Source of the DNA: an uncultured Haloferula sp. | GTDB taxonomy: Bacteria; Verrucomicrobiota; Verrucomicrobiia; Verrucomicrobiales; Akkermansiaceae | NCBI GenBank assembly: GCA_965652295.1 | Contig: CBFGTS010000001.1 | Location: forward strand, 480,001-544,000 | Length of the DNA: 64,000 bases | Reading direction: 5' to 3' | In this document: positions 60,398 to 62,871 of the stretch, piece by piece | Position numbering within the stretch: the first letter of the stretch is position 1 | Layout of the letters: every line of letters starts with the position of its first letter | Notes under the pieces: model-generated | Told to the model about the DNA's origin: nothing | Database searches by the model: none | Seen by the model: the letters and a program-made list of their open reading frames with translations, nothing else | Made by a program: the position numbers and the translations under genes

Positions 60398-60604
60398 TCA
60401 CTTGAAGAAGCCGCCCATTTTTCCCATCAGCCCGCCGGCGATCCGGCCGAGGTCGGGGGTGCGGCCTTCGAGGAGGTCGTCGATGACGCCGACGCAATCC
60501 TGAGGCACGCGCTCCTTCACGAAGCCCGCCACGGTGTCGAGGATCTGGTCCACCTGTTCGTCGCTAAGTCCGAGAGCGGAGAGGCGGGCTTTGAGTTCGT
60601 TCAC
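60398..60604 (-). CDS. Small helical hypothetical protein (68 aa)
   Basis: GTG start; NELKARLSALGLSDEQ...GGLMGKMGGFFK; host codon usage. Confidence 0.65.
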   Translation of the reverse strand: MNELKARLSALGLSDEQVDQILDTVAGFVKERVPQDCVGVIDDLLEGRTPDLGRIAGGLMGKMGGFFK

Positions 60605-60721: not shown

Positions 60722-61054
60722 AGGTGCGGCGGAGCATGAGCCGCAAACCGGCGCGCTGGCGAGCGGAAGTTGTGGGGTCGGTTGGAATCGTCGAGAAGCT
60801 GCGGAGCAGGGAATTCGGGCTGCCCAGAAATCCAAATCTCCAACGGCCGAAGCTCAACGAAAGCTCTTTCAATCCTCAGAGCCCGCCTAATCAACCCATC
60901 CTCTTGCCATAGTGAGGTGCCGCGACCGACTCACCGCGACCCTCTGCCGGCTAACGTATTTCAACATTGAGCCCGCCTGCCGCTCATGGAATCGGGATTT
61001 GCCATCACTGATTTTTGCTTCAGCGGCCGTAACGTCGTGGGAACTGGATGAATT

Positions 61055-61084
61055 AAGCCCCCGTCCGTTGCCGGACGGGGGCTT
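61055..61084 (-). terminator. Terminator hairpin after the small ORF
   Basis: Perfect 13-bp stem AAGCCCCCGTCCG/CGGACGGGGGCTT with a GCAA loop on the minus strand, 4 nt after the stop codon. Confidence 0.8.
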
Positions 61085-61088
61085 TGGA

Positions 61089-61250
61089 TCAGGCGGCCTT
61101 GTCGTCGTGATCCACCGGAACCCACATCACGAAGACTTTGCCTCGCTTCGGATATTCGATCCTTCCGGTCGTCGGATTCCGCCGCGAACGGCGGAAGATT
61201 TTCCGATAGCCGGGACGATCGTCCGGGAACAGTTTGAGCTGATCGCTCAT
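61089..61250 (-). CDS. Small basic protein (53 aa), absent from the ORF track
   Basis: MSDQLKLFPDDRPGYRKIFRRSRRNPTTGRIEYPKRGKVFVMWVPVDHDDKAA; AGAAAGGA RBS 6 nt before ATG; terminator immediately downstream. Confidence 0.75.
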   Translation of the reverse strand: MSDQLKLFPDDRPGYRKIFRRSRRNPTTGRIEYPKRGKVFVMWVPVDHDDKAA

Positions 61251-61473
61251 AGTCTGTCCTTTCTATCCCCTGAACAGGTTCTTGACCCCGGGCGAAACCG
61301 TGGTAAACGGCCTTTGCGGAAGCGTGTTTACCACCACGATTCACCCTCTGAAGGGCTTCAGTCAGTCAGAGGTCTGCTGAAAAGCGTCTAAGGAGCCCGC
61401 CTTGTGTCTCACCACTGGCGGGCTCCATTGCGATTGCGAACTTAGAATTTCATTTGGCGTTACTTGGGGTGGG

Positions 61474-62085
61474 TTACTCAGGTTCATACCAAAGCCCCTC
61501 TCGGGTAAATCTCGTGAGTATTGCTTTCTGATTAACGCCGAATTTCTGTGCTAGTAGCTCAGCGGCTCTCCGGCGGAGATCCGGTAGTTGGCGCCAACCA
61601 GGAACTTCTTTGAAGGTGGAGGAAAGCCGCTCGAACTCAGATTCGAGTTTCTCAATGGGTACTAGCAAGCGGCCGGCAAACTCGTTCGCTTCCTTCTCAA
61701 TGTCGTATTTCCTCCCTCCCAATGAGGCCGTCCACTCCAAAAATGTTTCGAGGGTGCGAAAACCCGAAGTTTCAAATTCCTCTCGATGCATGATGTAGTG
61801 CCCAATCTCGTGCGCGATTGAGAACCTCAGTCGATTCTGCTTCCAAGGTGGGGCTCGATCCTCCAAATCGAAAATTTCCTCGTCCACGTAGATCCCGGTG
61901 AAGTCGGCAGCGAGGGCGGCTTCGACACGATATTTGGACGAGAGCCCCGCGAGAGGGATCAAATCCAAACCCAGCTCGACGTCCGCGAGAAAAACGGTGT
62001 CGATCGGTAGGTTGTTGAGCTCGAAGCAATTGTGTTGCTCCCGGAACTCACGGACATGCTCCCAAACGCGGGTCTCCCAACTCAT
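61474..62085 (-). CDS. ImmA/IrrE-family Zn metallopeptidase
   Basis: RLRFSIAHEIGH (HExxH) and EKEANEFAGRLLVP. Confidence 0.9.
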   Translation of the reverse strand: MSWETRVWEHVREFREQHNCFELNNLPIDTVFLADVELGLDLIPLAGLSSKYRVEAALAADFTGIYVDEEIFDLEDRAPPWKQNRLRFSIAHEIGHYIMHREEFETSGFRTLETFLEWTASLGGRKYDIEKEANEFAGRLLVPIEKLESEFERLSSTFKEVPGWRQLPDLRRRAAELLAQKFGVNQKAILTRFTREGLWYEPE

Positions 62086-62098
62086 TGTTATCTTTTCG

Positions 62099-62473
62099 TT
62101 ATTCTGGATCGGCCCGGTAAAGGGCGCGAATGTCATCGATCATGGATGCCAGCTCCGTTTCGTCCGGCTCCTCTCCTCGCATCGCGCGAAAGAAGGCCGG
62201 TAGCTTTGAGACCACGCCCTCACGTTCGAGGATGTCGGATGGCAGTTCATTACGGGCGAGAGATGCCGCATCGAAAAGCTCTTGCCGCTGTGCGCCGGAG
62301 ATTTCCAAGAGATCGGCGACTTGAGACAGAATGGCGACATCGCGCGGTGGTGGATTCACCCCCCGTTCCACCTTGCTCCAATTGCTCGGATCAAGTCCGA
62401 GTTGCGAACAGAATTCGCGGAGGCCAAGGCGGCGGGAGATGCGAGCAGTCTTGATGGTTTCATTGAACTTCAT
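62099..62473 (-). CDS. XRE-family HTH regulator
   Basis: FNETIKTARISRRLGLREFC..LGLDPSNWSKVERGVNPPP. Confidence 0.9.
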   Translation of the reverse strand: MKFNETIKTARISRRLGLREFCSQLGLDPSNWSKVERGVNPPPRDVAILSQVADLLEISGAQRQELFDAASLARNELPSDILEREGVVSKLPAFFRAMRGEEPDETELASMIDDIRALYRADPE

Positions 62474-62597
62474 GTGTAGTGCCCAAAATTGGCCGATTCG
62501 GGCGGTTCGGTTGGCGGTTTTCGTACATGGCTGGATTTTGTCACTATAGAGGAGCAGCATCGGGCTGCGGCACCAGCGACATGAGCTTGATATATCA

Positions 62598-62643
62598 ACC
62601 GTGGTAGAAATCAACCACAAATGTGGTTGGATTTTACCACGGT
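62598..62643. promoter_or_regulatory. 46-bp imperfect inverted repeat made of two GTGGT-N8-ACCAC boxes
   Basis: ACCGTGGTAGAAATCAACCACA-AA-TGTGGTTGGATTTTACCACGGT; arms match at 19 of 22 positions; 125 bp upstream of the XRE gene. Confidence 0.65.
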
Positions 62644-62785: not shown

Positions 62786-62871
62786 TGGTGGGCAGAGAAG
62801 GATTCGAACCTTCGTAGGCTTGCGCCAGCAGATTTACAGTCTGCCCCATTTGACCGCTCTGGTATCTGCCC
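62786..62871 (-). tRNA. tRNA-Tyr(GTA)
   Basis: Reverse complement GGGCAGATACCAGAGCGGTCAAATGGG GCAGA CT-GTA-AA TCTGC...GGTTCGAATCCTTCTCTGCCCACCA; CCA is encoded. Confidence 0.95.

Follow-up and report, generated by a model that had tools for sequence, protein, structure and literature searches.

A small basic protein with a predicted antisense RNA behind an XRE-ImmA pair at a tRNA-Tyr gene of an uncultured Haloferula sp.

Closest described systems

The membrane type I toxins Hok, TisB and Ldr are proteins of fewer than 60 aa, with a long structured leader and an antisense RNA upstream of the ribosome site. Type I toxin proteins as a class are typically under 60 aa (PMC11264685). The symE/SymR pair of E. 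coli is also a type I toxin-antitoxin system, whose genes are described in two settings, downstream of an HTH regulator or on their own with a conserved upstream RNA (PMC1891008). Among switches built from a repressor and a peptidase, CapP and IrrE have a domain layout that includes a GAF domain, and the repressor CapH is cleaved at Phe-Arg (bioRxiv 2022.04.27.489752). SocB of the Caulobacter SocAB system is a protein with a clamp-binding motif, and the same source gives the motif consensus (QL[S/D]LF-like) and its tolerance (PMC9690074).

The locus described here lies in an uncultured Haloferula sp., in a stretch of 64,000 nucleotides (the window), and falls outside symE/SymR, CapH-CapP and SocAB, from each of which it departs in a defining feature. 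As in symE/SymR, a small non-membrane protein stands under a repressor and a cis-antisense RNA (the latter predicted here); symE is damage-induced, and it resides in mobile islands near restriction-modification genes (PMC1891008). Among the loci compared here, L068 has a divergent MmeI-like gene. Unlike SymE, the 53-aa protein has no SymE Pfam match and is unrelated, its repressor is an XRE with an ImmA peptidase predicted to cut it rather than LexA, and its antisense promoter is located upstream of the start codon, whereas that of symE is inside the ORF. As regards the AbrB fold of symE, the peptide model shows a small core of beta strands flanked by short helices at the termini (pLDDT 76, pTM 0.47), and fold searches with it returned no clear match (at best a Foldseek E of 2.5 and a Z of 2.1).

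With ImmR-ImmA, CapH-CapP and DdrO-IrrE the locus shares an XRE and an HExxH M78 peptidase, operators over the promoter, and a conserved Phe-Arg in the C-terminal part of the repressor (bioRxiv 2022.04.27.489752). Its peptidase, at 203 aa against 291 for CapP, has no room for the GAF domain that CapP and IrrE carry; no integrase, att repeats or ICE genes adjoin the cassette, unlike ImmR-ImmA of ICEs and prophages; and the output would be a micro-protein with predicted antisense gating, unlike that of any of the three. For the defence role raised by the original prediction no supporting evidence was obtained. No CBASS or other defence operon adjoins the cassette, unlike CapH-CapP, and L068 has its MmeI-like gene in divergent orientation. 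Like SocB, the peptide carries a clamp-binding motif and is predicted to compete for the hydrophobic cleft of DnaN (PMC9690074); unlike in SocAB, no protein antitoxin is seen, the predicted control being RNA, and the motif is confined to part of the peptide family. The likeness to Hok, TisB and Ldr lies in a protein below 60 aa, a long structured leader and a small (here predicted) antisense RNA, and the difference in a basic beta-strand model without a hydrophobic helix.

The cassette and its XRE-ImmA pair

The features are as follows.

62786-62871, minus strand: tRNA-Tyr(GTA) gene; the cassette lies beyond its 3' end
62601-62618 and 62623-62640: tandem operators GTGGT-N8-ACCAC, within an inverted repeat with 22-nt arms (62598-62619/62622-62643)
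62099-62473, minus strand: XRE repressor gene, 124 aa (Pfam HTH_31, E 4.9e-7)
61474-62085, minus strand: ImmA/IrrE-family (M78) zinc peptidase gene, 203 aa, with HEIGH (Pfam Peptidase_M78, E 1e-8)
61251-61473, minus strand: structured leader of the peptide mRNA, 223 nt, from folding
61257-61263, minus strand: Shine-Dalgarno-like GAAAGGA, its 3' end 6 nt above the ATG, from sequence
61089-61250, minus strand: 53-aa basic ORF of an unnamed family
61282-61309, plus strand: predicted antisense sigma-70 promoter (TTGACC, 16 nt, TAAACG)
61316-61432, plus strand: predicted cis-antisense small RNA of ~115 nt, terminal hairpin at 61392-61426
61054-61085, minus strand: GC-rich hairpin past the peptide stop codon, a likely terminator (-29.7 kcal/mol, weak U tail)

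The original prediction had placed a double operator, an XRE, an HExxH peptidase, a spacer, a basic ORF and a ribosome binding site beside tRNA-Tyr, and all of these are confirmed at the minus-strand positions above. The low GC content that it noticed is also borne out (0.547, i.e., 54.7%, against 0.635 for the genome, with ~1% of equal-sized windows as low), as is the lack of an integrase: none was found, nor any repeat of the tRNA-Tyr end or att repeats around the cassette. Its terminator is likely the hairpin at 61054-61085, whose U tail is weak and which a terminator scan did not list.

The neighbours of the cassette are tRNAs, a 54-aa ORF and a LysM gene. We consider that the cassette is a real, recently acquired islet, because its GC is low, the peptidase was not found in 24/24 same-genus genomes, genome G194 (locus L056) has tRNA-Tyr and tRNA-Ala ~530 bp apart with the cassette absent, and most of the stretch is matched, with no differences, by contigs of public DNA runs, the best of which may come from the source sample itself. 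The segment at 60914-60993 has a 73% match to C7:86738-86823 in the same genome, a region near tRNA-Asn with phage-like genes, and is likely a further mobile-element remnant adjoining the cassette. In the interval between tRNA-Leu and tRNA-Ala, an acidic 54-aa ORF (60398-60562, minus strand) gives a weak Pfam match to MT0933_antitox (E 0.09). No support was found for a 41-aa ORF at 61362-61487 or for starting the XRE at a TTG further upstream. The end of the peptidase gene (61489-61508) and the 5' arm of the last hairpin (61068-61087) show 80% complementarity, so that the two may pair over this distance as an alternative fold.

The tRNA-proximal operator contains, on the minus strand, TGGTAAAAT, which resembles an extended -10 (the promoter was read by eye), and a perfect 12-bp palindrome, TTGATATATCAA, directly adjoins the operators at 62587-62598. 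The XRE-ImmA subfamily comprises 11 other loci, from 381 genomes, plus L068. GTGGT-N8/9-ACCAC is found upstream of 10 of these 12 related XRE genes, and we therefore infer that both operators are XRE binding sites; the whole 4.37-Mb genome holds 13 exact matches, two of them at the cassette. NrdR as the binder of the repeat at 62598-62643 was rejected, as the repeat tracks the XRE family.

The XRE ends in a C-terminal PAFFR that is kept in all full-length relatives and is, by analogy with the Phe-Arg cut of CapH, a candidate cleavage site. The peptidase has H92-E93-H96 and E130, the downstream Glu being a zinc ligand, and scores 35.5 bits against Pfam PF06114 (cut-off 22), which places it in ImmA/IrrE (Peptidase_M78). 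Its HEIGH and downstream Glu align with the active site of CapP, in a match to the 291-aa protein that spans query residues 83-147 only. By its sequence the peptidase is ImmA-like, and together with the XRE it probably forms a switch that responds to DNA damage. At two related loci (L124, L125) the XRE-ImmA pair is followed by a ~345-aa gene of nuclease-like appearance, and L124 lies downstream of an apparent type I restriction specificity subunit (both read by eye).

The peptide family, its leader and its neighbourhoods

The original prediction would have fallen if the peptide had no conserved homologs. It has close ones (53-83% identity), and a profile search recovered 60 family representatives at E <= 0.001. 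Across 14 homologs, mismatches at codon positions 1/2/3 number 203/230/412. The homolog family and this third-position bias together indicate that the 53-aa ORF is a genuine gene whose sequences point to coding selection. The family consensus is approximately RPG-x3-IFRxW-x3-PKTGxRxYPKxGKVF-x2-WV. Its core gave no Pfam or NCBIfam match for the 69 members searched; PHROGs 30400 and 4533, to which no function is assigned, weakly match 14 and 12 of the 69, and the cassette peptide is matched by neither. A PDB sequence search with the peptide returned nothing, and the Atlas nothing but unnamed clusters under 0.9. The peptide has a net charge of +6 and no membrane helix (best 19-residue hydropathy -0.06; at most 0.93 across 20 homologs), and its 53 aa lie below the 60-aa norm for type I toxins.

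In counting the family, the weak hits L011-L021 (11) were left out, L082 was treated as a duplicate of L070, and 16 near-identical gut prophage loci were entered as two (L058, L067). L074 was discarded as a false hit, and five longer matches that might have been fusions look like wrongly called starts instead. Within a draw of the proteobacterial phylum the profile matched 1/399 genomes; judged with that profile, few genomes carry a member. The peptide gene is unannotated in both the Agrobacterium plasmid and phage LLS.

The surveyed sample consists of 28 distinct peptide loci, of which 19 are verrucomicrobial, 2 represent gut prophage types and 7 come from elsewhere. An XRE-ImmA pair lies directly upstream of the peptide in five of them, namely the cassette, another verrucomicrobium (L068), an Agrobacterium plasmid (L148), Acinetobacter plasmids (L150) and E. 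coli phage LLS (L152), all in the order XRE-ImmA-leader-peptide, and a Klebsiella plasmid (L151) has the pair divergent from the peptide. L068 also has an insertion sequence inside its peptidase gene. The proteobacterial loci with XRE-ImmA came from peptide-only queries; L148 scores 41-43 bits with the family profiles, while L150, L151 and L152 reach only 14-17 bits with profile A4 and are joined to the family through a chain of similarities. L148, L150 and L152 have XREs that resemble one another but have no detectable relation to the cassette XRE, which suggests, from sequence comparison, that XRE-ImmA has been coupled to the peptide in at least two XRE lineages.

No ImmA lies beside the peptide in 22/28 loci (1.5-8 kb flanks), and only 2/13 related XRE-ImmA loci carry the peptide, L068 alone among the 12 other than the cassette; seven viral ImmA loci were not part of this co-occurrence count. 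The association between peptide and XRE-ImmA that the original prediction proposed to look for is thus present at 6/28 peptide loci and missing at 11/12 other XRE-ImmA loci, and its three-part switch survives as a recurring cassette (L068, L148, L150, L152) but not with a dedicated peptide. These two counts mark the peptide as a plug-in output rather than a dedicated partner. Judged by its sequence neighbourhoods, the peptide-antisense unit is elsewhere a plug-in behind other regulators: at loci without ImmA its upstream neighbours are unrelated proteins of 160-280 aa, and in many of these cases an IS1-type transposase comes next or an integrase is close by; other copies are solitary. In the cassette, L068, L148 and L152 the peptide is followed by a hairpin or intergenic DNA, and together with the recurring gene order this leaves a truncated larger operon, of which the cassette would be the head, without support.

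The leader was already recognized as structured in the original prediction, and its fold bears this out (-80.8 kcal/mol, z -2.36; 2/200 shuffles equally stable). That description of spacer and peptide had overlooked the predicted antisense RNA and the clamp motif. Aligned leaders share an invariant GTCAA, which is TTGAC on the opposite strand (8/8 rows). An antisense -35 element occurs 25-50 nt above the ATG in 17/20 loci (198 of 3558 long-ORF controls from the genome; 11.6% of shuffles), and is joined by a -10 at 16-18 nt spacing in 15/20 (13 of 3558; 2.2%); the sense-strand control gave 3/20. The three loci without a -35 match are L092 and two gut prophage loci, and an opposite-strand promoter is also found in L148, L152 and L153. 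About 105-120 nt beyond the antisense promoter, most relatives have an opposite-strand GC hairpin with a U run, which a fixed test detected in 14/26 loci versus 21/800 controls and in 4/26 on the sense strand. In seven aligned copies, 11/14 pairs of this hairpin vary on both sides, the covariation score is reached by 0/500 shuffles, and slid controls collapse.

We predict from these leader sequences that the spacer encodes a cis-antisense RNA of ~115 nt, and the peptide gene is likely silenced by it. It is important to note that the cassette copy has an imperfect -10 (TAAACG) and a hairpin (61392-61426) without a U run, and that neither the cassette nor L068 passes the test for an antisense terminator. 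The ribosome site of the peptide lies outside the predicted RNA and is not clearly sequestered either (mean unpaired probability 0.48). Between 60200 and 63000, Rfam 15 (including C4) gave only three tRNAs above the gathering score.

Leaders of other kinds were also seen. One verrucomicrobial family (L084-L090) has a second leader type, with conserved RNA flanking the peptide on both sides; a far-upstream CTAGACC is complementary to a downstream GGTCTAG (by eye), like the 5'-3' fold-back of hok-type mRNA. On the gut prophage contigs L058 and L067, the peptide gene is opposite in strand to the early genes, and two leader hairpins and a terminator, with complementary loops TCCTAC/GTAGGA, are reminiscent of C4-type RNA pairing. 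L091 is a 5'-truncated peptide copy whose leader is missing. In the Rubritalea loci L069, L072 and L073, palindromes resembling the NrdR box lie about 280-310 nt ahead of the peptide gene, each accompanied at a distance of 32 bp by a weaker second site, and a sense promoter comes after the sites (by eye). The Haloferula genome has nrdR and similar tandem boxes before an nrdG-like ORF (C15:19640). Such boxes suggest that the Rubritalea copies may be under nucleotide-pool control.

At residues 4-8 (61227-61241) the peptide reads QLKLF, which agrees with the clamp-binding motif and is placed at an exposed end of the protein. Within the first 13 residues, 14/18 verrucomicrobial loci have the motif in loose form and 10/18 in strict form (background windows: 12/3581 and 0/3581), the loose pattern having been written post hoc and the loci counted being kin. 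Among the 60 representatives, 4 have the strict motif (0.02 expected) and 8 the loose one (0.7 expected); P0027 and P0055 carry it near the C-terminus, and a Bordetella phage copy has QLSF. The ImmA-linked proteobacterial copies L148, L150 and L152 have no clamp motif. We predict that the peptide binds the replication sliding clamp DnaN through QLKLF; the motif is missing from most of the wider family, and clamp binding would therefore be at best a branch-specific gain.

Proposed mechanism, alternatives and meaning

Our leading reading, which we hold tentatively and at a little short of even chances, is that the cassette is complete as it stands, an XRE-ImmA damage switch whose likely output is the 53-residue protein, predicted to be held by antisense RNA and to bind the clamp, so as to slow replication. 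It is built on what sequence comparison shows: the genes with their operators, a promoter and a hairpin conserved on the opposite strand, the clamp motif, and a gene order that recurs in distant mobile elements. In this mechanism the XRE would bind the two operators and repress the operon, while the antisense promoter would fire constitutively and its ~115-nt RNA pair with the leader; duplex decay and collision of the two promoters would keep the peptide off. Upon DNA damage the peptidase would cut the XRE, probably at FR94-95, and sense transcription would then exceed the antisense RNA. The peptide would dock on DnaN via QLKLF and hold DNA through its basic hairpin core, and the clamp-bound peptide would slow replication as a growth brake of the type I toxin-antitoxin kind.

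Three other readings have to be weighed against this damage-switched brake. The peptide could be a harmless mobile-element helper that, once the element is induced, links its transposase, its integrase or a transcription complex with the clamp or with DNA, the antisense RNA merely tightening the timing. Such a role would fit the IS1-type transposase after the peptide in L084, L086, L092 and L027 and the integrases near it in L073, L144 and L150; the clamp is exploited by TnsE and by further IS proteins (PMC9690074), and in phage Mu the C protein relies on a clamp motif in transcription (bioRxiv 2025.01.04.631326). But the window has no transposase or integrase, the Rubritalea and Brevifollis copies are solitary among unrelated genes, and at most loci a separate hairpin follows the peptide gene; we regard the helper role as unlikely. 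Somewhat less probable still is that the peptide acts back on the switch as a modulator, a role for which the original prediction had left room, either as an antirepressor or as an activator or inhibitor of the peptidase. The six XRE-ImmA neighbours in at least two separate XRE lineages, and the presence of XRE-ImmA in all three plasmid groups reached by peptide-only queries, would be expected of a modulator; the 22 peptide loci without ImmA, the 11 of 12 XRE-ImmA loci without peptide and the several unrelated proteins that serve as upstream partners elsewhere would not.

The reading to which we give the least credence is that the cassette is a decaying remnant of a deleted island, in which the three genes no longer cooperate. 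It can draw on the low GC, the tRNA adjacency and the absence of the peptidase from the same-genus genomes, as well as on the resemblance of 60914-60993 to DNA of another island in the same genome, the degenerate antisense tail, and the insertion sequence in the peptidase gene of the sister copy L068. Set against decay, none of the three frames is broken, the two operators and the ribosome site are preserved, and the same order in L068, L148, L150 and L152 implies no missing downstream operon.

The XRE-M78 switch is of a known kind. For the protein family, the antisense unit and their coupling no description was found in the main texts of the open-access literature, and the cassette genes go unmentioned in passages of the phage LLS paper (PMC12315714). 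A broader view would be a widespread family of basic micro-proteins (40-55 residues), each antisense-locked and serving as a plug-in output of replication-stress sensors (XRE-ImmA; NrdR-like boxes in Rubritalea), of which one branch carries a clamp motif and stalls the replisome, making it the first RNA-antitoxin system against the beta clamp. We consider this generalization doubtful.

Many XRE-ImmA pairs seem to be orphan switches, and in this case the missing output is likely a gene too small for annotation. If the proposed mechanism is true, the family would add a further type I toxin family that does not act at the membrane, and would provide a natural clamp ligand of 53 residues. Phage LLS can be propagated on E. 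coli K-12, which makes the cassette accessible in a laboratory strain. The locus would also exemplify a two-key logic, in which a protease cut and an antisense threshold must both be passed before the peptide is made.
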